NCBI GenBank assembly: GCA_963758525.1
Contig: CAVWVQ010000003.1
Coordinates: 4,448,001-4,512,000 of the forward strand
Direction: 5' to 3'
Source: an uncultured Phycisphaerales bacterium
GTDB taxonomy: Bacteria; Planctomycetota; Phycisphaerae; Tepidisphaerales; Tepidisphaeraceae
DNA: 64,000 bases
Shown here: piece by piece, positions 17,817-39,894 of the stretch
Position numbering within the stretch: the first letter of the stretch is position 1
Layout: the number at the start of each line of letters is the position of its first letter
Notes under the pieces: model-generated
What the model was told of the DNA's origin: nothing
What the model saw: the letters and a program-made list of their open reading frames with translations, nothing else
Database searches by the model: none
Program-made: the position numbers and the translations under genes

Positions 17817-20093
<2,277 letters not shown>

Positions 20094-21271: not shown

Positions 21272-21631
21272 TCATGCCGGAAGGAAGCCACGCAGGGCGC
21301 GGGTGAACAGCTCGGCACGTTTCAATCCAGAGCGATTGGCGTAGGCGTCTGCCTTTTTAAGCAGGTCGCGCTCCACACTGAGCGAAATGACTTTGACCCC
21401 ACGGCCGATCTTCGGCCGGCCCATCCGCTTTTTCTCCCGCTTCACCTCGGCGCGTTCGGCGGTATTGAGCGGGCGCATCTCCTTGCGATGCTTTCCCTGC
21501 TCATAGAATCGGGCGACTTTTTCCTTATCCTCGGCGCTGAGGGCGTCGAACTCGGTGCCGTTGCTGAAATCGGGGAAGTCGTCCGCTGCACCGGTCGTCT
21601 GTTTCCCGCGTGCCCTTGTAATCTTGCTCAT
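21272..21631 (-). CDS. Antitoxin-like protein with C-terminal ribbon-helix-helix (BrnA/CopG-like)
   Basis: GRPKIGRGVKVISLSVERDLLKKADAYA; directly downstream of BrnT-like gene. Confidence 0.65.
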   Translation of the reverse strand: MSKITRARGKQTTGAADDFPDFSNGTEFDALSAEDKEKVARFYEQGKHRKEMRPLNTAERAEVKREKKRMGRPKIGRGVKVISLSVERDLLKKADAYANRSGLKRAELFTRALRGFLPA

Positions 21632-21655
21632 GTCTATCGCTCCGTGCCTCCGGCA

Positions 21656-21937
21656 TTACCGGTAGGGCATTGCGTGGATGACGTAGAAAGTCCCATCCGG
21701 GTCCTTCACGTACACCACTTCAACCTTGCGCCCGCTGATTCCGCGGCCGTGGACAACCCACGAGCCCTTGCGATGTCTGCGATGTTTTCTGGCATTCCGC
21801 ACCACGCGTTCGGTCTCTTCCGGTGTGACGCCGTGCTTGGCGATGTGTTGCACGTTCCACGCGTTCCATCGGAACTCGACTACCACAAGTTTATTATAGA
21901 ATAAAGTCCGGCGATGGTCAACGACTGAGTTCTGCAT
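21656..21937 (-). CDS. BrnT/DUF4258-like toxin (start uncertain)
   Basis: EFRWNAWNVQHIAKHGVTPEE...VVY...YVIHAMP. Confidence 0.75.
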   Translation of the reverse strand: MQNSVVDHRRTLFYNKLVVVEFRWNAWNVQHIAKHGVTPEETERVVRNARKHRRHRKGSWVVHGRGISGRKVEVVYVKDPDGTFYVIHAMPYR

Positions 21938-21971
21938 CGTTGTCAGACCCCCAAACGTCGCCGGTTGCAGC

Positions 21972-22077
21972 TTGGGCGAAGTCTATGGCAGCGCCAATGC
22001 GCAGAATAAAATTCGTCCACGATTTCGTGGGGGCCTGGGATCAGGTCATGACCCTCGATCGGTTTGATCCGCCGTGA
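21972..22077 (+). repeat. Degenerate duplicate of the last ~105 nt of katG
   Basis: gaagtctatggcagcgcc...ttcgtccacgatttcgtgg...gtcatga.cctcgatcggtt.gatc..tga matches 19989-20093. Confidence 0.9.
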
Positions 22078-22110
22078 TGCGGGCGGTGCTCATTCGGCTA
22101 GGATAACGCC

Positions 22111-22791
22111 ATGGGCAGGTTTAGGCGGGCAAGAACTATTGCGCTCCTGGCGGGGCTGGTTGTTTGTCTGATTGTTGCCGGCGCCTTTCTCACACCCACA
22201 CAGCGATGGTCGGATTCCGGCAGTCAGGGGACGACACCGATTTGTTTCGCGCACACCGCAGACGCCGCACGCACGCTGATTGCCGAAGGCGCGGATCCAA
22301 AGGTTCGGAGCGATTACGCTGCGACGCCGCTTCATTTCGCAGCCGGCCGTGGCGACTGGGAGGTGGCCGCGGTCTTGATCGCGGCCGGCGGGGATGTGAA
22401 CGCCAGGGATGTCACGGGCGACACGCCTTTACACTGGGCCACATGCGAGAATTGGGATCCGGATGAGGGCAAGCACTGCAGTGCCGGACCGTTTGATCCG
22501 CAACGAAAGTTACGCGTTGCCCGCCTGCTGGTCGAGCATGGCGCCCGCGTCAACGCGGCCGGCGCTTTCGGTGGGAAGACACCTTTGTTCGAGGCAGTCA
22601 GAACGAATGTGGAGCTGACCCGATTTCTCCTGGATTCTGGCGCGTCAGCAGACGCACGCACGTCCGATGGGTACGCACCCCTGCATCAAGCGATGAATGC
22701 GGAAGTAGTTCGGCTGCTGATTGAGCACGGCGCGAAAGTGAACGCGCGAGAACGTCTGGGAGCAGCGCACTCCGCTCTATTTTGCACATGA
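22111..22791 (+). CDS. Ankyrin-repeat protein (possibly C-terminally truncated)
   Basis: TPLHFAA, GDTPLHWA, GKTPLFEA, GYAPLH, GADP/GARVNA; N-terminal hydrophobic anchor. Confidence 0.88.
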   Translation: MGRFRRARTIALLAGLVVCLIVAGAFLTPTQRWSDSGSQGTTPICFAHTADAARTLIAEGADPKVRSDYAATPLHFAAGRGDWEVAAVLIAAGGDVNARDVTGDTPLHWATCENWDPDEGKHCSAGPFDPQRKLRVARLLVEHGARVNAAGAFGGKTPLFEAVRTNVELTRFLLDSGASADARTSDGYAPLHQAMNAEVVRLLIEHGAKVNARERLGAAHSALFCT

Positions 22792-22947
22792 GCCGGACGT
22801 GATTGCGGAACTGACAAAGGCCGGTGGCACCAAATAGCGCATCCTAATCGCAAAACGGGACGGCATTTTCCGTATTCAAAACGAGGCATCTTGGACCATG
22901 CCGGATCTGCCGATATAATAAAGTATAACTAAAAACGTGGAGGCGGC

Positions 22948-23202
22948 ATGATGGTCATGGTGAAGAAGCTGGGCGGCAGCGTTGCCGTTGTCATCCCCAG
23001 GGCATTGGCGCGCGAGATGGAACTGGTTGAAGGGACTCCGCTGGACATCAGCGTCGACGCCGCGGGCATTGTCCTGAGGAAGCAAGGGCGTCGGCCGCGG
23101 CGCTCGTTGCGCGGGATCGTGGCGCGGATCGACCCGAAGAGCTACCGCCGTCACAGTCGCGAGCTGTCGGAAGACCGGCCTGTCGGAAGGGAGATCTGGT
23201 GA
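22948..23202 (+). CDS. mazE: AbrB/MazE-family antitoxin
   Basis: VKKLGGSVAVVIPRAL; ends PVGREIW; overlaps the toxin start. Confidence 0.9.
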   Translation: MMVMVKKLGGSVAVVIPRALAREMELVEGTPLDISVDAAGIVLRKQGRRPRRSLRGIVARIDPKSYRRHSRELSEDRPVGREIW

Positions 23203-23555
23203 GCAAGCGAACCTACCATCCCGATCGCGGCGATTTGATCGAAATGAACTTCCAACCCGCGGCCGGCCGCGAGATCGACAAGCGACGTCCCGCCGTCATC
23301 CTCAGCCCCGTGACGTACAACCGTCGCTCGGGCATCTGTCTCGCCGTGCCCACCACCACCGACTTGACGCCTGGCCCGCTCTGGCTGCCGATGCCCGCCG
23401 GTTACCTCGCTTCGCCGAGTCTCATTCTTTGCGACTACGTCAAGAGCTTTGACTACCGTGAGCGATCCGCATCTTTCATAAACCGGCTGCCTCTTGAACT
23501 GGTCGAGCAGATCATCAGCAACATTCTGGACCTGATCGACCCGGCCTCGGTATAG
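23199..23555 (+). CDS. mazF: PemK/MazF-family endoribonuclease toxin
   Basis: PDRGDLIEMNFQPAAGREIDKRRPAVILSP..YN, DYVKSFDYRER. Confidence 0.92.
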   Translation: MSKRTYHPDRGDLIEMNFQPAAGREIDKRRPAVILSPVTYNRRSGICLAVPTTTDLTPGPLWLPMPAGYLASPSLILCDYVKSFDYRERSASFINRLPLELVEQIISNILDLIDPASV

Positions 23556-23603
23556 TCGATCCCTGACTGTCGCGGCATGGGCCCGGCCGCGACGATAGCG
23601 CGC

Positions 23604-23639
23604 AAAAGAAAAGAGGCGCTCGTTTGCACGAGCGCCTCT
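23604..23639 (-). terminator. Intrinsic terminator after the slipin gene
   Basis: agaggcgctcgt-ttgc-acgagcgcctct hairpin followed by a T-tract on the minus strand. Confidence 0.75.
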
Positions 23640-23642
23640 GAC

Positions 23643-24770
23643 TCACTCCTTATTGGCAACCAGCCCGCGGATCTGCTCCGTCAGATCCCCGTTGCCGAAG
23701 ACGAACGTCGCCTTGGTGCCGGCGAGGACTTCCTTCAGCATTTCCAGCTCCTTGAGCCGGGCAAGCTGCGGACTCTCCGCCAGCAGCTTCGCCGTGTTGG
23801 CCTGGCTGCGGGCGGCGGCGGTCTCTTCACGCCGCTTGATCAGGTTCGCCTCGGCTTCCTTCGTCGCTGCGATCACCTGGTTCAAGAGCGTCTTCATGTC
23901 GCCCGGCAGGATGATGTCCCGCAAGCCGACACTCTTCACCGCCACGCCGATTGCCTCGGCGCGCGCGGCCAATGCCTGACGCACTTCCGCACCGACCGCT
24001 TCCTTGTCGCCGAGCAGCGCATCGAGCGTCTTGGTCCCGACGGCCGCCCGGAGAACCAGCTGCGCTTCGCGGTAGAGCGCCTGCGCGTAATCGCCGACGC
24101 TCGTCACGGCCTTCACGGCATCCGTAACGACCCAGGTCACCAGCAGGTTCACGCGGAGCGTGACCTTATCACTGGTCATGATTTCCTGGCCCGCGACGTC
24201 GGCGACCTGCTCCCGGCGGTCGATCGTCTTCCAGGTCACCTTGCCGGTGCCCTTCCAGAAAACGTGCAACCCGCCAGCGAGCCGATCGACGAGAATGCCG
24301 TCGCGGTAGAGAAGCACATCCTCTTCCGCGCTGACCATGACCCCGTCGAACCACTTGGTCGCATCCGGCGACGCCAGGATCGTCTGGAGCTTGGCGTGCT
24401 CGAAGCGGAACGATTCGATCGAAAACGTCTCGACGTTCAGCTTCGCGGCCGTCTTCCAAAACGCGTAGCGCCCGGGTCCGAGGATCGCGAACAGCCGGTC
24501 ATCCTTCCAGACGACCGCCCGCTCCCCGTCGGCCAGGTCCACGACCTGCAGTGCCTCGCGGAGCTGCGCGTTCACGAGCAGCACCTCAAGCAGTGCATGC
24601 TCGAAGCGGGTCTTGAGCGTGTCGGCGATCTCGACCTTGTCCCCGTTTACTCCACGGCCCAGGCCGAGCAACCACCGCGACTTGACGTGGGCGCCGGGCA
24701 TGAGCAATTCCGCGAAGTCTCCATCACGGAACCACAGTCCACGCTCGTGCTGACGAATGCGAATCTTCAC
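23643..24770 (-). CDS. Slipin-family SPFH/band-7 protein
   Basis: Repeated ERG.L..DG...LGPG.Y.FW units, GQEIMTSDKVTLRVN, RDIILPGDMK, RREETAAARSQANTAK; GTG start with GAGAGG RBS. Confidence 0.9.
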   Translation of the reverse strand: MKIRIRQHERGLWFRDGDFAELLMPGAHVKSRWLLGLGRGVNGDKVEIADTLKTRFEHALLEVLLVNAQLREALQVVDLADGERAVVWKDDRLFAILGPGRYAFWKTAAKLNVETFSIESFRFEHAKLQTILASPDATKWFDGVMVSAEEDVLLYRDGILVDRLAGGLHVFWKGTGKVTWKTIDRREQVADVAGQEIMTSDKVTLRVNLLVTWVVTDAVKAVTSVGDYAQALYREAQLVLRAAVGTKTLDALLGDKEAVGAEVRQALAARAEAIGVAVKSVGLRDIILPGDMKTLLNQVIAATKEAEANLIKRREETAAARSQANTAKLLAESPQLARLKELEMLKEVLAGTKATFVFGNGDLTEQIRGLVANKE

Positions 24771-24789
24771 GATGCACCTCTCTTTCATT

Positions 24790-25166
24790 CCTTCTGCAGC
24801 CGCCTTTGGCGGATTCACCCAGCCGCGGCCTCGCCGATCGCGGCACCATTTCGAACCTCTTCCGTCCAAACACCGTTGCTCAAACAACACAGGCCGAAGC
24901 CCGGCCCGCCCGTGCGCCCGCCGATCCGGCGGGATCGAGTTTCGACGCGGTTCGTCGCGAAGATCGAACCGGCGCACGCCACCCTTCGTGCAACCGGTCT
25001 TGTTCCATGGCGACGACGCCGCGGCAAACTTCCTCGACCGCAAGCCATCAACGGCGTCGCGGATGCCGCAGGAACCAACCGCCGAAGCGGTCAATTCGCC
25101 ACGATCATCCGCCGGCGTCCGTGCGGGCCGGGGTCTTCGAACCTGTTCAGTTACGCTTCGCAGCGT
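24790..25166 (-). ncRNA. Putative structured RNA between the tRNA-like element and slipin
   Basis: Several GC hairpins (e.g. accgc-ttcg-gcggt, ccgcc-aaa-ggcgg) and three GGTTCGA T-loop-like motifs; no convincing protein. Confidence 0.4.
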
Positions 25167-25238
25167 TGTTAGTGACGGGAGTCGAACCCGCTACCGCAAG
25201 GTTATGAGCCTTGTGCTCTTCCAATGAGCTACACTGGT
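25167..25238 (-). tRNA. tRNA-like gene, anticodon CAT (Met/Ile2 type), acceptor stem only 4 bp
   Basis: D arm GCTC/GAGC, anticodon arm CAAGG-CTCATAA-CCTTG, T arm GCGGG-TTCGACT-CCCGT; AGTG/CACT pairs but the outer three positions mismatch; no CCA. Confidence 0.8.
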
Positions 25239-27496: not shown

Positions 27497-29857
27497 TTAT
27501 TTCAGGTTAAATTCAATTTGTTTTGCGCGATTGATAGACATGTGCAGTGTTGCGTCGCGAAGTTCCGGCCGGGAGACGAGGAATTTTGCCAGAGGGGTCA
27601 CGACGAGCGTTTCGATGGCGCGCTGCAGCGGGCGAGCGCCGTAGCGGTGATCGTAGCCGGCGATACACAGCTTTTTGCAGACGTCGTCGGTCCAGCTCAA
27701 GCGGATGTTGCTGGCTCGCAGCCCTTCGCGCTGGCCGAGCTTTTTCAGCTCTGCTTCGGTGATCCCGCGGATGGTCGACTCGCTGAGCGGAGCGAACGTG
27801 ACGACGGCGTCGATGCGGTTGAAAAATTCCGGGCGGAAAAAGCTCATCGCCTCGCTGTCGTAGTCGCTGGCCGGCGCGGTTGAAAGTCCGAACGACTCCA
27901 TGCGGTCGGCGCCGAGATTCGACGTCATGATCATCAGCGCGCTGCGGAAGGTCGTGAGCCGCCCGAAACGGTCAGTGAGGCGTCCTTCGTCAAAGACGCC
28001 CAACAAGAGATCAAACACTGCGGGGGCGGCTTTTTCGATTTCATCCAGCAGCACCACCGTGAAGGGTTGCTCGCGGAGGCGTTTGATCAGTTCCGACGGC
28101 TCGCCACCGGGCGGGCCGATCAATCGTTCGGCCGCCCCCGGGCCGGCGAATTCGCTCATGTCGAGCCGGAGCATGCGCTCGCTTTTCTTGCCCATCGCCC
28201 CGAGCTGATCCTCACCTTGCCCGAAGAGAAAATCGGCGATCGTGCGTGCCAGCTCAGTTTTGCCGACGCCGGTTGGACCGCAGAACAGCAGCACGCCAAG
28301 CGGACGCCGCGGGTCGTTCAAGCCGGCCTTGAACGTGGTGATGACCCCCGCGGCGGCGGCGTACGCGGTCTCCTGTCCCATCACTTTCGCACGAAGCGCC
28401 GCCACAACGTCTTCAACTTTCAGCGGCAGTTCGTCGCGCAGAAAAAGCTCGGGCAGGCCGGTGAGCTTGATGAAGCGATTGATCACACTTTGGGAAGTTA
28501 CGATTCCTTTTGTGCCATCAGTTGCATGATGTTCGATGTCGGCGCGGTCCTTTGTGCTGCGGGCGGCAGTCGCGGCGCGTGACGTGCGGTCGAACAAATC
28601 GCGCAAAAACCCCGCGGCGCAGCCGGGGAAACTCTGGTACGGCATGAACCGCGCGAAGAGGCGATAGATCTGGGGAATGGCATCGCGCGCGTAATCGATC
28701 TTGAGATTTTGCTTCGCGACTGCGGCGAGTTGATCGAGGGCGGCAATCGCCTGCGAGGCATTGAACGGGGGGATTTCCACGATGGAGAAGCTTGCCGCGA
28801 AGCTCGGGAGCAATCGCCGGCAGGCGTCGAGCTCGGCGATGGTGGCTTCCCCGACGACCCGCATCTCGCCGCGCTGCAGGTATGGGACCAGGAACGCGGC
28901 GACGCTGTCGCTGGGCGAAGAGCCGCCGGTGCGAACAAGCTCCAGCAGGTTATCGACGCAGAGAATACCTTCTATATCGGAGAGCTTCTCGATGACCTCT
29001 TCGATGCGCTCCTGCCATTGTCCCAGATATTTCATCCCCGCGATGAGCCTGGCCGCGCTGCTCAACCAGAATCGGCTGCGCACGTGCGCGGTGTTTGCGG
29101 CATCGGGATCATCCGATTCCAACCCGTCGCGCTCCAATTTGCGCGCCGCTTCGGCCAACACCGTCGTTCTGCCAGACCCGTTTTCCCCCAGCAGCAGCAC
29201 GCTGGATCGCGAGCGGCCGAGAATGTCGACGAGCCTTGCCACTTGCGCATTGCGCTGCCACGGCCGCGAAAGACGCCGCCGCGTGCCGCGACTGCCCAAC
29301 GGTTCGGCAATGAGCGGCAGCGGATCGAGATCGGGCGGAACCTCGCGCTCCGATGCTCCCGACGGAATATGCACCGTGGCATCGTCCAAGTGCACGTCTG
29401 CCGGCGGCAAATAGCGCGACAACTCGCGCGGACTTTTTCCCTTCATCGCAGCCTGTATGTAGTGCGGCGCCAGGCCCTGCAGATCGGCCTCATCGTCGTA
29501 GGTAAATCGCACGCCGATGGTGGGCATTGAGCAGAGATACAACTGCGAGCGATCTCGTCCCAGCACCGACGGAACCCGCAGCGTGATCGTCTGCTTCAGC
29601 GAAAAGACTCGATCCTCCGTCTTATATTCCGGGCGAACGTCTGCCATCAGCCAGACAAGCTTTGGCTCGTTGAAATTGGGGCGGGAGAGCGCCTGGCCTC
29701 GTTTCATCCGCCATTGCAGAAGCTCCTTGATCTGCCCTGCGACATCGGCGCCGGTAATGCCGACGGTGGCAATGTCGTTAGGATCTTCCACCAGGCAGCC
29801 GGTGCAGCCACCGCCGGAATGCTGCCAGATGAGAATGGGATATCGGTAAGTCGGCAT
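27497..29857 (-). CDS. Atypical ClpA/B-like double AAA+ protein C (degenerate D1, intact D2)
   Basis: GENGSGRT / CVDNL; GPTGVGKT / LLDEIEK; MTSNLG, FFRPEFFNRID, YGARPLQRAIE. Confidence 0.88.
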   Translation of the reverse strand: MPTYRYPILIWQHSGGGCTGCLVEDPNDIATVGITGADVAGQIKELLQWRMKRGQALSRPNFNEPKLVWLMADVRPEYKTEDRVFSLKQTITLRVPSVLGRDRSQLYLCSMPTIGVRFTYDDEADLQGLAPHYIQAAMKGKSPRELSRYLPPADVHLDDATVHIPSGASEREVPPDLDPLPLIAEPLGSRGTRRRLSRPWQRNAQVARLVDILGRSRSSVLLLGENGSGRTTVLAEAARKLERDGLESDDPDAANTAHVRSRFWLSSAARLIAGMKYLGQWQERIEEVIEKLSDIEGILCVDNLLELVRTGGSSPSDSVAAFLVPYLQRGEMRVVGEATIAELDACRRLLPSFAASFSIVEIPPFNASQAIAALDQLAAVAKQNLKIDYARDAIPQIYRLFARFMPYQSFPGCAAGFLRDLFDRTSRAATAARSTKDRADIEHHATDGTKGIVTSQSVINRFIKLTGLPELFLRDELPLKVEDVVAALRAKVMGQETAYAAAAGVITTFKAGLNDPRRPLGVLLFCGPTGVGKTELARTIADFLFGQGEDQLGAMGKKSERMLRLDMSEFAGPGAAERLIGPPGGEPSELIKRLREQPFTVVLLDEIEKAAPAVFDLLLGVFDEGRLTDRFGRLTTFRSALMIMTSNLGADRMESFGLSTAPASDYDSEAMSFFRPEFFNRIDAVVTFAPLSESTIRGITEAELKKLGQREGLRASNIRLSWTDDVCKKLCIAGYDHRYGARPLQRAIETLVVTPLAKFLVSRPELRDATLHMSINRAKQIEFNLK

Positions 29858-29860
29858 TGG

Positions 29861-32800
29861 CTACTGCTTCGGGCTTGCGGAAAAGTCCTGCGGTATCGGA
29901 AGCTGCGCGAATATGAGTTTGCGAAGTTCGACGGCGCGTGGCAAACCGCGCATCGACATGCCGGTGCGAAGATCGACGGTGACGTTCGCAGGGTCGTAGG
30001 TTCGCACGATCGGGTTGAGCGGAAATGGATTGGGTGTGTCCGCGTCGCGTTGGATCGATGCGCGCCAGGCGAGATCGCGAGCGCGAAGTTCTCGCAGGAC
30101 GGCGTGGGCATCGGCATGGCCAAGGGGTATCACAGTCACCTGAACGACGATCACCTGCTGGCGTTCGCCGATAAACAGATGCGTGCCTTGTTCGCTGGCC
30201 ATCACGATGGCAATGCCGGGCATTTCCATGACGATCGCGTGTTCGCGACAAGCGGCAGGATCCGGCGCGTGAATCTCGCCCGTGATCCTTGCTGCGGGCG
30301 TCTGCTTGGCGGAAGTTGTCTGCGTGGAGCGTTTCGATTTGGATGCTTTCGTTGCGGTCTTGTTGGGCGTGCCATCATGGGCGGATGAATGCGAAGCAAG
30401 ATCGGACGCCACGAATCCGTATCCCGGGAGGAACAACTGGTGATAAATTCCGGCAAGCGCTTTGAACTGCTCGGCGGCGCTGGGGTTGGGGGTGCGCATC
30501 CAGACAAGGCAGCGGTCTGATGCGGGATCGCTCGTGGCGATCACTTCAAGCAGGGACACCTCGTGGATGAGTTCGGCCAGTCGATCTTCCAAGATGTGTT
30601 CGTCGGCGCTTTGCGGGTCGCCGAAGGTGTGCCCATCGGGCTCGAGCGCATGAAGCTGCGCTTCGGTATCCGCTGAGGCGCGAAGGCCGGCGCGGTTATC
30701 TCCGTCGGAGAGGGCGCGCAATTTCTTGCCCGAGCGTGGGGCGCGAATTGGGGGGCGAAAGGCGATGGTCTTTTTTGGCGCAGCGGCGAGTCGATCGATG
30801 CTGGCAATGAACCTGCGGATGTGGTCCGCGTATTCGCGCGCTGCCAGGTAGCGAAACTGCGCGGAGGATACTTCCCCCTGTTTCAGCGCAGGCAGGCTTT
30901 GTGAAGCGGCTGCGTTTTGTTCGAAGCGATGGATCGCCAGCTCCGCCCGGTCCAGTACGTCTGCCCAGTCGGTCAGATCAATCGTCACCGGCTTCAGCGA
31001 GCGTCGCTGGGCGTTTACCAGCGTCTCAACGCGCACCGCAATTCCCGAGTGTGCGGGATAGAGGTGAATCACGGCCGGAGCATCGGGCGCAGCCCCGGCA
31101 AGGTGAGCGGCGACGGGGCCGGTCAGTTGCCGCTCGATTGCGCGTTTCAGCGCCCTGCGCCGAGTTGCGGGTGATACCCCTCATCAACGACCTTCTCCAG
31201 CGCCGCGGGATCGACTGACATCACGCTACGGCGATGCGCCAGCCCATCACGACGCAGGATGTCGCCGATCAACCGCTCGGCGATTTCCCCGATCTGCCGG
31301 CGCGTAAGCCGCTCGAACGGAACGATACGGTCGATGCGGTTGACGAATTCGGGGCGAAAGAAATTCTCCGCGGCGCCGATATACGACTGGCGGTCGGACT
31401 GCCCGGCAGGACGAAGACCGAAGTGGGCGCCGGCCTGGCGCGCACCGAGGTTAGACGTCATAATGATGATCGCATTGCCAAAATCCGCGGTACGGCCCAG
31501 CGCATCGGTCAGGCGGCCTTCGCCGAGCACCTGCAACAGCAGGTCAAACACCGCCGGGTGCGCCTTGTCAATCTCATCGAGCAGCACCACTGAAAACGGC
31601 TGGCGGCGAACCGCGGCAGTCAATAAACCGTCGGGGTCAGACGATGTCCCGTTCAATCGCGCGGCGGCGTAACCGTCAGGAAACTCGTTCATGTCGAAAC
31701 GCAGCAGGCGCGTTTCATCGCCGAAGAGATATTCAGCCAGCGCCTTGCGCACTGAGTTTTGCCCACGCCCGTTGGGCCCAAAAACAGAAACGCCGCCAAC
31801 GGCCGGCCCGGATCGTTCAAGCGCGCTTTGGCGATGACGACGGCATCAGCGATCGCGTCCAGCGCCTCGGTTTGTCCGGTAACGTGCGCCGAAAGCGCCG
31901 TGATGACTTCTTCCCGGGGCAGGCGATTGCGATCGTCGAGAAACTGCAGCGACAGCCCGCTGCGGCTTCGGATTTCACTGAGCACCTCCTGGCGGCCGAT
32001 TGGCTTGCCTTCGAATTTCGCGGCCAGCTGGCGATAGAAATGCGCCGATTTTCCCGGCTGCGCCGATTCCCGCAGATATCGGTTGGCCAGATCCACGACC
32101 AGGGGCAATACCTCGAGATTGAACCGGCACCGATGCTTTCCTTCCAATTGTCGGCGGACGCTGAAGAGAATCTGCCGGGTTTGGGATTCGGCGGCGGGAC
32201 GAATTGGGAGGATATGAAAGAGATCGGCAAACCCGCGATCCCGCTCCCGCAGCGCGCGGAGGGCTGCGGGGGTGATTTCCGCCAGCAGGCGAAAGTCCTG
32301 TCGCTCGATGTACGGCTTGATCACATGTGCCACCGTGAGGTCCGAATCGCGCGAAAGCCCGGCATAATACAGGCCAAGCAGATCGTCGAAGTAGAGAATG
32401 TGATCCTGCTTGATCGATTCCTCCACGATCGCAGTGACGCGGTTCTCCCATTGTCCGACATACATCATCCCCGCGATGAGCCGTTGAGGCGCCAACAACC
32501 AGAAATTGTTGCGGGAGGTATGCGGAGTCTTCCTTTTGTTCACCCGGTGATAAACGCACTCGTGGATGACAGAGGTCTTTCCCACCTGGGGCTCGCCCAC
32601 CAGGAGCACCGGACGCCGCTGCTTTCCGGAAAGCACCTTTTGCAACTCCTCCACCTCGGCGTTGCGCAGAACCGGGCGATCGAGTTCGTCGGGATAAAGC
32701 CAATCGAGGCACCGGCCCACTTTCTGCAACTCCGCCCGCCCGGTCATCCGCCTGGCGGACCCGAGCATCGCCATGAGGTCATTTTCCTCTTTTTCCAACT

Positions 32801-33319
32801 CCGGCTCGACGGAGATGGAGAGATCAACCGGCGTGACCCATTGCCGATGGCTGGAAGTGAATTCCGCCGGAACCTGAAACTTGCCGGATTCTTTTTGCAT
32901 CGCGGTGAAATGATCGACCAGGATATCGCGGGCGCGATCCAGCACGCGCTGCCCGCGGGTGATGTCGAACCATCTGCCGGGCAGTGCAGGGATCATTGCG
33001 ATGCGCCGGCCGAGCGCCTGGAAGGAGATCACCAGCACCCGGCAATCGGCCGTTCCGCGGTCGAGCAGCACTCGCGTCTTGAGGTGGTCTTCATCGATCT
33101 CCGGGCAAAACATCCAGCGGAGCAATTGGTCGTGGCGCGGATGCCTGGCGAGATTATCCAGAAGCTTCCGCAATTCGCGGGTGAGCTTTGCAGTCGCCCG
33201 GCTCAGTTGCTCATCCTGGGCATGGGGATTCGCGCAAAAAGCGGGCGCACGGTAAAGAGCGGCCCGGCAGTGTTTGGCCGACGAACTTCACTGACCAGCA
33301 GCGGTACTGTGATGTTCAT
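29861..33319 (-). CDS. Atypical ClpA/B-like AAA+ protein B with C-terminal release-factor-like domain; frameshifts near 33238, 31750 and 31155
   Basis: MNITVPLL start; GEPQVGKT / YFDDL; GPTGVGKT / LLDEIDK; GYHPQLGA; C-terminal SEQGTHLF and IVRTYD..VDLRTG. Confidence 0.8.
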
Positions 33320-33347
33320 TGATCCATCACCATCATGGGTTGCGCAG

Positions 33348-36300
33348 TCACGACTCCATTACCGCCCAGGCAGCCTGGCGAAGCTGTCTCTCGACGGCAT
33401 CCTCCAACACCGCTGTGAAATCGCGGGTAAAGCGGAGCTCGGCCTGCAATAATTCATCCTTCACGATCCCGGCGTCGCAAGAATAGGTACGCCGGGCATG
33501 ACTTGCCGGTATATCAGTCGGCCAGTCCTCCCTCGCCATGGGAATATATTTGCTGAGCGACTCCGCCTCGCTTTCGACGATGCAATGGACGGTGCTGGTG
33601 TTCCCCCGAAAAATGTGAATTCCCCGCTCCGCGGCAAAACGAAGCCGGGCATGCATTCCGGCGATGGAAAGCCCGATGCCGATTGCGGACGGCTCCGGCG
33701 CTGCAAGATATTTGGCGATCTCCTTGATCGGACTCCGGCGAAAACCCTCTTTTCCGCGGGATTCGTACCAGCAGGCATCGACCGCATAGGAATGCGTCGC
33801 GGCGATGCCGCAATAGACCGCTGCCAGCTCGTGAACGCGGGCGCGGTCACCGAGAATGCCGATGACGACATTGTGCGGCCTGGCAGTTTGCATCGCCAGC
33901 AGCGACAGCAGCAACGCTTCGAAGCGAACCCGCAACCGGTTGATCTCTTCGCGCTGACCAGAGAGCCCGGCGGGATTGGATTGGTAGAATGCCGACAGGC
34001 AGGCATTTTCGATCAGATCGATCGATTGGGAGAGGTGCTCCAGCGCGTCTGTAATCTGGCGAAGCAACTTCATGCGCCCAGCGCGGGCCTCATTGAAGAT
34101 CGGTTTTTCTTTGGATTTGCGCCGGGCTTGCTGGCGAGCCTCTTCCTGTTCGAGGCGGAAGAGCTGATTGACGACTGTCAGCACCGCGGCGCAGCGCTGG
34201 CATTTCTGCACGTCGCGGCGGACCTGTGCGCAATCATCCGCCATGGTTCCGATGATCGCCGGCGGTGCCGTGGCGCCGCTATGCGCTGCGCTCGCACGGT
34301 GATTCGGATCGCGCCGTTTTCGGCGGTGGCGTCGGCTTCCAGCGGGAGATCGGGCGAATATGCATTGACGGCATCGGCGAGCGGCGCGAGAAGCTCGCGC
34401 TCGACGGCGCGCTTCAGCGGTCGGGCGCCGTAGCGGATGTCATATCCGCTTTTGGCCAGATGGGTCAGCACTTCAGCAGATAATCGCAAGGTCATCCCGC
34501 GAAGCTTGACGCCGTCCCGCTGCGCAACGAGTTCGATTTCCCGCCTGGCGATCTGCTCGATGACATCCCGCTCCAACGGCAGGAAGGGGACGATGCGATC
34601 GATGCGGTTGAAAAGTTCGGGTCGGACGAAATCACGGACTTCATCGGTGAAATGGCGTTCGGCGTCAGGCTGGCCCGTCGGGCCGGATGGGCCGGTGGTT
34701 CGATTGAGACCGAAGTTCCCGCGGCCAAAGGATGCCGTTCCAAGGTTGGAGGTCATGATGACGATGGTGTTCGAGAAATCAGCCAGCCGGCCGGCGGCAT
34801 CGGTCAGTCGCCCCTCGCCGAGCACCTGCAGCAGCAGATCGAGGAATGCCGGGTGAACTTTTTCAAATTCATCGAACAGGATGACGGAAAACGGCTGCTC
34901 GCGCACTTTGGCGGTGAGCAGGCCTTCGTTGCCATGTGAAGTCCCGATCAGCCGTTCGACGGCGGCGGGCCCGGCGAACTCGCTCATGTCGAAGCGGGTG
35001 AGGCGCGCGCGGTCGCTGAAGAAATATTCGGCCAATGCCTTGGCCATTTCGGTTTTGCCAACGCCGGTTGGCCCGATGAACAGCAGTGATGCGATCGGCC
35101 GATTCGGGCGCGTGAGAGAAGCTTTAACGGTTGCCAGCAGATCCACCACAAGTTCGATTGCGCAACTGGCCGATCAGTCGGGCGGCGAACCAGTCGTGCG
35201 CTGCGCACAGATCAAGCGGCACGCGCGGATCGAGCATGAATCGCGGCAAACCGGTTTCTCTGGCGAACGCATCAATGACATCAGCCGGCGTCAGCGCGCG
35301 ATCGGCGGGAACGTCCTTGAGGAGATTGAGCAGGAACCGCGCCGGCCGCCCGGGGTACGCGGAATACGTGGCAAAGCGCCGATGCAGGCGGTCGAGGGCG
35401 GGCAGCCAATCGTCCTCAATCGTCACCGGGCGCTGCTCCCCTTCGGCGATGCTGCGGAGGATCCTGCGGCCGGTGGGAATATCGGGTTCTTCGACGCGTA
35501 ATTGACGGAACAGCTCCAGCAAATAGGGATCGAGACGCTCGATGAAAGGCAATTGCTCAGGCGTGCATTCGGCAATCACGAGGACTTCGCCACGGCCGAT
35601 ATATTGCCGGAGAAATCCCGCGATTCCGCCGCCGCCACCAACTCGACCCACCTGCATGAGTTCGATGAGATTGCCGACGTGGAGGATGGCGTTTTCGCGG
35701 GCCGCTTCTTTGCACAAACGTTGCGTGCGCTGCTCCCACATGCCGTAACCGCTCATTCCGGCGATCAGGCGCGCCCCGCTGGTAGACCAGACCGGCGATC
35801 CTGCCCGCAACGATTTCCACCGGCGGACGAGTTGCTCGACGATGGCCGTCTTTCCGCAGCCGGACGGGCCGATCAGCAGCACGCTGCGCGGCCCGGTAGC
35901 GCCCAGCGCGTCTGCCAGATCATCCACAATGCCATCCACTTCGTAGGCCGGGCGCAGCGGTTTTTCGCCGAGCACAAGCCCGACCTGCTCGATCACGAGT
36001 TTGCCCTTGGATTGGCCGTCGCTCTGGTCGTCCTGCTCCCGCTGGCGCGCGGTCTTCAGTTGCACGGGAAAACTGAGCGGAATGACCTCGGTCTTGCTCG
36101 TGCGCTGCGATAAAGCAAGTTCAAAGAGCGATTCGACGATTTTTAAACGCTTGATTGCCGCGAGGATCTGATCCTTCAGCAGGGCGGACATTTCGGGTTC
36201 GCGCCGGCAAATCACTTCGATGCCAAGAACCGGGACGTACGCGAGAAATCCCTCGCTTGCGTGTCGCCAGCGAACGATATCGAAGCGCAGCGCAATCGGA

Positions 36301-36566
36301 TTCTCCCAGTCGGGCATTCGCGCCGGAGGATCGAGCATGATCTCGATCGACTCGACGCGCGCATCCGACGGCACAACTCTTCGATGCAGTTCGAGCGCGG
36401 GAATTTTCAGCAGGATCTGGCCGGCCAGTCGGGTGATGGTGGCGGTGGCGCGAGCGGGATTGCGGTCGCAGCACAACAGTTCGGGAAACAACATCGGCTC
36501 AGCCGCGACGGTGTCTTCGTCGAGGGATTGGGAAATGAGCGTGATGGTCCAGTTGCGCACGGGCAT
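33348..36566 (-). CDS. Atypical ClpA/B-like AAA+ protein A with C-terminal release-factor-like domain; frameshifts near 35160 and 34260
   Basis: GPSGCGKT / HVGNL; GPTGVGKT / LFDEFEK; YGARPLKRAVE; C-terminal AERGIHIF and RRTYS..VKD. Confidence 0.8.
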
Positions 36567-38135: not shown

Positions 38136-38516
38136 GACCGCGAAGAGGCGATGTATGTGCTTCTTGGAATGTCCAGATCACCGTCAACAATTCAATGAAC
38201 GCGCGCGGGTACGTGCCACGTGCCGCGGCTATCCTACCCTCTGTTAGTTGGCTAAAAGTGGTTGCGGATGGCGCCTGAGTGCGCAACGTCATTTTGTCGC
38301 AAACTCCGCCCCGTCCGACTTGGCATCAACTTTTCTCAGGCAAGCCGCTGCGGAGCTTTGGCCGCCGCGCGACGATCTCCCCGTCGTCATGCCACCACGG
38401 CTCCCGGATGTTATTAAAGCTGAGTCAAATGCAATAACGAATTGTCAAATGCGTTATAGACGCGAAGATATGTGGACGGAGGCAGCTATGCCCACCGATT
38501 CCGAAGGAGACGTCCA

Positions 38517-39894
38517 ATGCAAAGAATTGGATCGATAATGCTTGCCGCGGTGCTCGCGGCCGCGTCGGCGTTTGTTTTTGTCAGCCGGCATGCACCGGCG
38601 GCGACGCTTGCCGATCATTCCGCGTTGACGCCGATGCCGGGCACGGGAGACGTAACGTTCGCGAAGAACATCGCGCCGATCGTCTTTTCAAACTGCGTGA
38701 CCTGCCATCGCCCCGGCGAAGTTGCGCCGTTTTCGCTGATGACGTATCAGGAGGTGCGCAAGCATGCGGATGACATTGCGTCCGTCACGGACGACCGACT
38801 GATGCCTCCGTGGAAGGCGGCGCCGGACTTTGGCGACTTCGTCGGGATTCGACGTCTTACCGACGATCAGATCGCGACGATCGATGCATGGGTCAAGGCG
38901 GGGAAGCCCGAGGGAAATCCGGCGGACATGCCGCCGGCACCGACGTTTGCGTCGGGCTGGCAGCTTGGCGAGCCGGACCTGGTTGTGAAGGTGCCCAGGC
39001 CGTTCACGGTTCCCGCGGAAGGGCGGGATGTCTACCGGTGTTTTGTGATTCCGCTGAATCTCGATGTCATGAAGTATGTCGCTGCCGTGGATTTCCGGCC
39101 GAGCAACCCTGCGCGTTTTGCATCACGCGATCTTTTATCTCGACAACAATGGCAACGGCCGACGTCTCAAAGCGCAAGCCAAGGACGGTCAGCCGGGCTA
39201 TTGGCATTCAGGCGGTCCGGGCTTTATGCCGTCGGGCGGCTTGGGCGGATGGGCGCCGGGATATCAGCCGCAGTTCCTGCCCGACGATGTCGGCCGGGCG
39301 ATCCGCCCGGGAGCGGACCTGGTGGTGCAGACGCACTTTCATCCGACGGGCAAGCCCGAGCAGGAGCAATCGACGGTCGGAATCTATTTCAAAAAGAACG
39401 TGCCGAGCAAGTTGCTGGTGAGCTATCCGCGCAGCGTTCGGCGAATCGACATCCCCGCAGGCGACAGCGATTACCGCCTTCACGATCAATTCACGCTTCC
39501 AAACCAGGTGACGCTCGAAGGGATTACGCCGCACGCTCACCTGCTGTGTCAGGAAATCAAAGTCGTGGCGACGCTGCCGGACGGCACGGTCAAGCCGCTG
39601 ATTTGGATTCCCAAGTGGGACTGGAGCTGGCAGGAGCAGTACCAATATCGCCGGGCAATGACGATTCCCGCCGGCACGCGGGTGGACATCGATTACCGAT
39701 ACGACAATTCCGCCAACAATCCGAGGAACCCGCATGAGCCGCCGCAACGCGTTCGCTACGGCGAGCAGACTGGCGACGAAATGGGCATCGTGTTCTTCCA
39801 GCTTGAGATGACGCGCGGCGACCTGGCGGCGTTCATGGCGCAGGCGATCCGTCGTCGCATGCAGCAACCGCCAACCACTGCGCCGGCGAACTGA
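38517..39894 (+). CDS. Secreted heme-c (CxxCH) plus copper monooxygenase (PHM/DBH)-like protein; frameshift near 39110
   Basis: CVTCH, MPPW, LGEPDL, YRCFVIP, VLHHAI, QTHFH, PHAHL, WDWSWQ, GEQTGDEM. Confidence 0.85.

Follow-up and report, generated by a model that had tools for sequence, protein, structure and literature searches.

A three-gene family of Clp-type ATPases with degenerate first rings, two members of which end in a module derived from release factor 2

We analysed a 64,000-nucleotide stretch of DNA (hereafter the window) from an uncultured Phycisphaerales bacterium of the family Tepidisphaeraceae (assembly GCA_963758525.1, contig CAVWVQ010000003.1, positions 4,448,001 to 4,512,000), part of a 6.47 Mb genome in six contigs, in which a reading of the sequence alone had recognised three tandem, co-oriented Hsp100/Clp paralogues. 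This arrangement is confirmed: genes A, B and C follow one another on the minus strand, from the start of A at 36566 to the stop of C at 27497, with gaps of 28 nucleotides between A and B and 3 nucleotides between B and C, and each encodes two AAA+ modules of the Clp type. Gene A (33348..36566, ATG start codon at 36566) specifies about 1075 residues, comprising a predicted tandem HicB-like N-domain, a degenerate first AAA+ ring (D1), a second ring (D2) without the GYVG pore loop, and a C-terminal module derived from release factor 2 (RF2). Gene B (29861..33319), delimited by tblastn with intact B homologues, specifies about 1150 residues with the same architecture, and gene C (27497..29857) is intact, its 786 residues forming a predicted tandem HicB-like N-domain, a degenerate D1 and a D2 without GYVG, with no release-factor module.

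Proteins A and B both end in an RF2-derived module that lacks the peptide-releasing and stop-codon-reading parts. On the minus strand, this module spans 33351..34244 in A, with the helices of domain 1 and domains 2 and 4, and 29864..30988 in B, where it is assigned by profile and carries a lineage-specific low-complexity insert. The sequence-only reading had proposed release-factor-like C-termini without the GGQ domain and the SPF/PxT loop, to be checked by a structural match to RF2; profile, fold and alignment all uphold this proposal, which had named domains 2 and 4, both present, but had missed the domain 1 helices. When the PDB was searched with profiles of 32 A tails and of 44 B tails, RF2 was the best match to both (E = 4.7e-7 and 4.4e-7, respectively). 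The predicted model of the A tail (predicted local distance difference test, pLDDT, 93.6) contains no domain 3 and retrieves RF2 in Foldseek with E = 7.4e-10; 45 matches fall at E <= 0.001, and all those listed are release factors. Structural alignment of the same model to a release factor with VIA-align gave Z 17.2 (root-mean-square deviation, rmsd, 8.0 over 258 aligned residues), as against Z 10.9 for the best unrelated chain, and domains 2/4 gave Z 14.4 (rmsd 3.5, 155 aligned). In an alignment of four A and B rows, domain 3 is deleted, the SPF loop is replaced by a short hairpin and the tip of alpha-5 is shortened, while the modules and release factors have in common the invariant positions L..Y, E.G.H, R and D. 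A GGQ tripeptide occurs within the last 330 residues in 3/32 A and 2/43 B proteins, a frequency similar to that in the module-less C proteins (3/66); here and below, family-wide counts refer to 141 full-length proteins (32 A, 43 B and 66 C).

The homology is detectable only by profiles and folds, since single-sequence Pfam searches of both C-termini returned nothing at E 0.1 and scans of individual members were sparse, with PCRF found in 5/32 A and 3/44 B rows at E <= 1. Aligned to the genome's own RF2 with hhalign, the B module reached a probability of 89.3 and the A module a weak 38, and the A and B modules matched each other weakly as well (51). The genome retains ordinary RF1 and RF2. prfB carries a programmed frameshift; the RF2 frame of this genome (L010:1411-2520) has no methionine near its start, which may reflect that frameshift or another indel.

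A single-gene sister family, found as frames of 952-1266 residues in five genomes, bears on the origin of these modules (L103:204-4001, L105:8783-11749 and L106:769-4554 on the plus strand; L104:7495-10872 and L102:6040-8895 on the minus strand); one genome, G041, has both a sister gene and the trio. The sister proteins share the degenerate D1, the D2 without GYVG and a docking-type loop, and have a helical-repeat N-domain or none. Their tail is RF2-like and, in four aligned proteins, retains a decayed domain 3 without GGQ. Since one sister protein scores far better with prfB (E = 7e-29) than with prfA (4e-8), RF2 is, judging by these scores, the donor of the module. These features suggest that fusion came first, followed by loss of catalysis and then by triplication with deletion of domain 3.

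The two ATPase rings were compared through 90% and 60% family consensus sequences for D1, together with a six-row alignment. As the sequence-only reading had stated, D1 lacks the catalytic Walker B glutamate (ILHVGNL, ILYFDDL and ILCVDNL in A, B and C, versus ILFIDEL in canonical ClpB) and joins D2 without the coiled-coil insert that forms the ClpB middle domain. D1 of all three proteins is also devoid of arginine fingers (the ERRF arginines of canonical ClpB), and its Walker A motif is present throughout (with GRT in C of the window). The D1 pore loop had been described as altered in each protein; the aromatic residue is shifted by one in A only, MYVG of B and KYLG of C lying in register with ClpB KFRG, and the arginine of the KYR type is not kept. 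D1 is conserved nonetheless, at a median identity of 53% in A, and a glutamate on its sensor-1 strand, conserved at >=90% in each class, replaces the alanine of ClpB GATT. By its position, this glutamate could act as a stand-in for the one lost from Walker B. The same sensor-1 glutamate is seen in the sister proteins (columns ~178-181 of the six-row alignment). Judged by its motifs, D1 is likely to be nucleotide-binding and poorly active, a rearranged active site being the alternative.

The second ring, described earlier as intact, is so in its catalytic motifs (Walker A, Walker B DE, sensor 1, arginine finger and sensor 2 are all kept), but its GYVG pore-1 loop is missing. A GYVG-like motif was found in 0/136 family sequences and in 4/4 canonical Clps, and the pore-1 spacer measures 33 residues in 130/136 family sequences versus 38 in 4/4 canonical Clps, making the region five residues shorter (measured in 136/141 family rows and 4/5 canonical rows). 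All NCBIfam Clp models score the proteins far below their cut-offs, at 232-360 bits versus 993 for TIGR02639. According to the available text of a study of ClpA, the D2 loops are needed for unfolding, and a variant without them degrades unfolded substrate via its D1 loops (PMC8666677).

An FGL tripeptide had been noted at the ClpP-docking position, and it is indeed present in all three window proteins. Across the family an xG[FL] loop is kept in 138/141 proteins (32/32 A, 43/43 B and 63/66 C). The genome has two clpP genes; its ClpC also carries FGL, and its ClpB and ClpV have no such loop. FGL occurs in all three classes in 4/5 Phycisphaerae rows (one unscored) and in two Gemmatales rows, xGF being dominant elsewhere, and the tripeptide shared with host ClpC hints at adaptation to a common ClpP.

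The N-domains of A (36042..36566) and C (29348..29857, both minus strand) are homologous to each other (hhalign probability 96.6, E = 6e-10). The first 170 residues of C were modelled (pLDDT 92.7) as a beta-rich alpha/beta fold in which a beta-beta-beta-alpha unit occurs twice, similar to two HicB N-terminal domains joined in one chain. With VIA-align, ranks 1-7 were all HicB or HicB-like proteins, with a middling best score (Z 8.4, rmsd 3.4, 77 aligned); Foldseek gave no match at E 0.001 (the best, HicB3, had E = 0.047), and HicB matched at the sequence level with E only 0.75-0.97. The best PDB profile match of the A N-domain was TTHA1756 (E = 0.043). Compared by profile with that of C, the B N-domain gave no significant match (probability 0.4), with similar motif spacing. 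Clp_N, an all-helical domain, had no match at E 0.1, and the structural model of C shows a HicB-like fold in tandem rather than Clp_N. It shares the beta-beta-beta-alpha fold with the HicB antitoxin, in two copies in C, and differs from it in having no C-terminal DNA-binding domain, the AAA+ region following instead. No hicA or small RNase neighbour recurred among open reading frames (ORFs) of at least 100 residues, a size limit that shorter HicA genes could escape.

To place the trio phylogenetically, we scanned GTDB with the N-terminal half of C, which confirmed 218 stretches, and fetched the best 80. These 80 came from Acidobacteriota, Planctomycetota and Verrucomicrobiota, with two from Bacillota, one from Pseudomonadota and one unplaced, and wherever A or B neighboured C the order was always A-B-C. 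Among 151 genomes of the same phylum, the C N-domain profile matched nine (the genome studied here included), and the same nine carry A and B beside C in this order. The A profile matched two further genomes, and 16 were matched with the B profile; 12 of these had the match in release-factor-sized frames (two such frames, one from a trio genome, were fetched, and both have GGQ) and four in the single-gene sister family. Of ten genomes whose C locus revealed no A or B nearby, nine encode a single A and a single B at other loci. Co-occurrence of the triad, which the sequence-only reading had proposed as a check, is thus all-or-none in the 9/151 genomes and complete in 9/10 unlinked cases. In a D2 tree (FastTree; 50 of the 141 full-length rows and three outgroup rows), sequences from five phyla separate into A, B and C, each on a branch of its own supported at 100. 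By this tree and these profiles, A, B and C are three stable paralogue classes of Clp/Hsp100 proteins.

The family is present in Planctomycetota, Acidobacteriota, Verrucomicrobiota and some Bacillota and, going by Atlas neighbours of A, which include clusters whose commonest phyla are Myxococcota and Bacteroidota (a lead only), probably in those two phyla as well. Viral contigs in IMG/VR held no relative, and plasmid matches cover <80%, the ten listed having 28-34% identity. A link between the trio and large genomes was weighed and dropped, six positive genomes being of ~4 Mb. In cultured Zavarzinella formosa (L049), A-B and C are unlinked. Individual loci vary further. In two Gemmataceae loci (L018:987-3755 and L038:6551-9166), a canonical clpB stands upstream of C, ~0.8 and 3 kb away, with A and B elsewhere; in several loci of the Pyrinomonadaceae type (L064:4231-9797, L067:3720-9201, L041, L043 and L037), an opposite-strand ORF of <=~1670 residues and a 142-residue ORF stand between B and C; and L107:4269-12743 (G054) holds a trio that is highly divergent and has its C-terminal modules shortened, the A-B-C order being kept.

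In the assembly, gene A is interrupted by two frameshifts (near 35160 and 34285) and gene B by three (near 33240, 31755 and 31156), raising the question, separate from that of family function, of whether A and B are pseudogenes in this genome. We regard this as very improbable. An intact homologue, P0001 (1080 residues), aligns to gene A across three frames with 80-90% identity, all three genes are intact on one contig in 24/80 GTDB loci (many of the others end at contig edges), and the ClpB, ClpC and ClpV genes of the same genome are frameshifted too, 3/3 of them inside D1. At 31156, one public contig of depth 3.7 carries an additional base, which may itself be erroneous, and an indel table from two low-share public DNA runs makes 1/5 of the frameshift places visible. 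Because ClpB, ClpC and ClpV are also frameshifted and the public contig holds the extra base, faulty assembly is the probable source of all five frameshifts. The frameshifted ClpC, ClpV and ClpB genes lie near positions 132927, 2017673 and 4885685 of contig C3 of this genome (G000), whose assembly seems indel-rich, and two overlapping ORFs at window positions 38472-39894 resemble one split gene. Promoter and terminator scans gave hits at chance level only, and the sequencing-run search listed no RNA run.

On the downstream side of the trio, window positions 21272-25238 may form a small island, composed of a toxin-antitoxin-like pair (21272-21937), an ankyrin protein (22111-22791), a MazE/MazF-like pair (22948-23555), an SPFH/Band 7 protein (23643-25094) and tRNA-Met(CAT) (25167-25238). 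Farther on, a 752-residue ORF (17835-20093) is presumably a catalase-peroxidase KatG. The two toxin-antitoxin-like pairs, 4-6 kb from the trio, invite the reading that the machine is a conflict or defence sensor, in which the HicB-like and RF-like domains would serve as baits for toxins or phage proteins attacking translation and the ring would destroy the attacker or signal its presence. The patchy distribution (9/151 genomes) and the borrowing of two domains from toxin-antitoxin and translation systems fit this idea. Across 81 loci, however, the recurrent neighbours of the homologues are mostly housekeeping genes, with no recurring defence cluster; the genes are single-copy when unlinked; PADLOC yields partial matches only, restricted to the generic D2 AAA part; and the family shows neither a viral relative in IMG/VR nor an effector domain, so that we consider a defence role improbable. 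A conserved fourth gene was likewise absent from these 81 loci, apart from what local synteny would give, and the SPFH gene does not recur.

A lead to a cultured organism comes from Myxococcus xanthus, in which the operon MXAN_4823-4825 encodes three Clp ATPases, with lengths of 1149, 1127 and 836 residues (PMC11423568, available text), matching the trio in gene number, in the A/B/C pattern of lengths and in low identity to ClpA, ClpB and ClpC. The Atlas cluster nearest to A (1143 residues, Myxococcota commonest) points, as a lead only, in the same direction. After 8 h of chloramphenicol the three genes rose by log2 3.57, 2.67 and 2.61, compared with 1.19 for MXAN_4832, and in chloramphenicol-adapted cells they were up by log2 1.5-2.2 (PMC6617876, available text). 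In the available text of both studies they are annotated as ClpB or as members of the ClpA/B family and treated as ordinary Clp ATPases (PMC11423568, PMC6617876).

We tentatively favour, at a little under even chances, a reading in which A, B and C form a hetero-oligomeric machine that feeds ClpP, is aimed at stressed ribosomes by its dead RF2 modules and handles clients needing little unfolding. The three subunits would very probably assemble into one mixed hexamer, for example A2B2C2, and this mixed ring would probably dock on host ClpP through the xG[FL] loop. Both steps have good indirect support at the level of sequence, because the three genes occur all-or-none, fall into three fixed clades and keep the loop in 138/141 proteins; a predicted complex of the A and B modules (score 0.01, mark 0.32) bears on neither side. 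The modules, for their part, would bind the factor-binding or A-site region of the ribosome without reading codons or hydrolysing peptidyl-tRNA, a step to which we give an even chance; targeting to stalled ribosomes is something we infer, because the modules lack codon-contacting parts and drift fast. Since a pore loop is missing from the ring with ATPase motifs (D2), and the aromatic loops belong to a ring (D1) whose ATPase motifs are degenerate, without Walker B glutamate and arginine fingers, the label of unfoldase is doubtful, and the trio would be a poor one, working on clients that are unfolded beforehand, for example nascent chains or loose proteins bound to the ribosome. Clients would be gripped in D1 and then passed to ClpP, although that they should be nascent chains specifically seems doubtful, and the choice of clients or adaptors would fall to the HicB-like N-domains.

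Several observations weigh against this reading. Both ATPase rings were active in the ClpA experiment, whereas here the D1 loops would need drive from D2. Domain 1 of a release factor sits beside the L11/L7-L12 stalk, at a great distance from the exit tunnel, which fits poorly with nascent-chain extraction. The modules lack both codon-contacting elements, and their median identity is 22-26%, compared with 43-48% among release-factor orthologues of the phylum (the two sets differ in breadth); the invariant residues that they share with release factors may be fold-stabilising. No translation-related neighbour is conserved in the 81 loci, and one of the ten tested genomes shows C without A or B (its completeness not being given). 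Finally, the orthology of MXAN_4823-4825 is probable on gene number, order, lengths and the Atlas lead rather than on sequence, and chloramphenicol raised 625 genes in the same comparison (PMC6617876, available text).

The fast drift of the modules, at a median identity of ~25% versus 53-60% for the AAA rings of A, together with the loss of every known functional release-factor motif, would also be expected if the module worked off the ribosome, as a structural or adaptor arm replacing the M-domain or adaptors of the ClpS/MecA type, with the mixed Clp ring feeding ClpP in general stress proteolysis. The stepwise decay of domain 3, decayed in the sister family and deleted in the trio, the retained docking loop and the position of C directly behind canonical clpB in the two Gemmataceae loci agree with such an arm. 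Set against it are the joint retention of domains 1, 2 and 4 in two subunits across phyla, the nearly invariant arginines of the A module and the response of the probable M. xanthus orthologues to chloramphenicol, which exceeds that of MXAN_4832 (PMC6617876, available text), and we hold this explanation to be unlikely, if worth serious weight. The absence from every subunit of a ring combining an active-looking ATPase site with a pore loop raises a further option, that of a ribosome remodeller that threads no substrate: the modules would sit in the A-site region or clamp it, and hydrolysis in D2 would drive conformational work such as splitting, factor removal or reversible silencing, ClpP docking being incidental or for self-turnover. 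Catalytically dead release-factor paralogues act in this manner in eukaryotes and archaea, as Dom34 does (PMC6514570, available text), but the conservation of the xG[FL] loop and of aromatic loops in D1 points to a substrate in the channel and to a protease as partner, making a pure remodeller rather improbable.

Among known systems, the trio resembles ClpA and ClpC (class I Hsp100, TIGR02639) in having two AAA+ modules, no long M-domain, the D2 catalytic motifs, the xG[FL] loop and, in B and C, an aromatic residue in register in the D1 pore loop. It differs from them in being three fixed paralogues rather than one, in its HicB-like N-domain in place of Clp_N, in a D1 without Walker B glutamate and arginine fingers, in a D2 without GYVG and in the RF2 module on two subunits, and from ClpB in lacking the coiled-coil middle domain and having the ClpP loop. 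Compared with RF2 (PrfB; Pfam PCRF + RF-1), the modules retain the helices of domain 1 and the superdomain of domains 2/4, with order and fold unchanged (for A by model, for B by profile); unlike RF2, they have no domain 3 and hence no GGQ, no SPF loop and no full alpha-5 tip, and are fused behind an ATPase. PrfH (RFH), paired with RtcB, and ArfB are likewise RF2-related paralogues outside normal termination, and PrfH is patchily distributed, but both keep the catalytic glutamine, and PrfH lacks domain 1 and lies beside rtcB (PMC6514570, available text), whereas the trio modules have domain 1, no GGQ and no recurring neighbour of the rtcB type. Functional analogies are offered by Vms1/ANKZF1 with Cdc48, in which a release-factor paralogue is coupled to a double-ring AAA+ protein, and by Dom34/Pelota, a catalytically dead paralogue acting on stalled ribosomes (PMC6514570, available text). 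Both systems differ from the trio in their unrelated aeRF1 fold and in consisting of separate proteins, with no fusions. Cdc48, moreover, is a homohexamer. In its boldest form, our preferred reading would make the trio an obligate three-subunit Clp machine in which dead RF2 copies couple stalled ribosomes to ClpP, an independent counterpart of Cdc48-Vms1 with a split motor, one ring gripping and the other burning ATP, and visible as the chloramphenicol-induced operon of M. xanthus, a genetically tractable species; we regard this as possible, at appreciably less than an even chance.

To our knowledge, the characterised bacterial Clp ATPases are homohexamers. The known bacterial release-factor paralogues hydrolyse peptidyl-tRNA, and a 2019 release-factor survey covers bacterial RF1, RF2, ArfB and PrfH, the string 'clp' occurring 0 times in its available text and supplement (PMC6514570). 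No description of a Clp-RF2 fusion was found in the literature searched, nor in the available part of PMC7159879; subscription journals and bioRxiv supplements, which lay outside the search, could hold one.

The family appears to break both patterns, that of the homohexameric Clp and that of the hydrolysing release-factor paralogue. Its separation of ATP hydrolysis (D2) from substrate grip (D1) provides a natural test of double-ring coupling, and, if the modules bind ribosomes, the family would add a so far unrecognised branch to ribosome quality control in bacteria. Its proteins are commonly labelled ClpC in databases, so that it is hidden by annotation. The family is directly testable in M. 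xanthus DK1622, through its probable orthologous operon, and in Zavarzinella formosa, through the genes found there.

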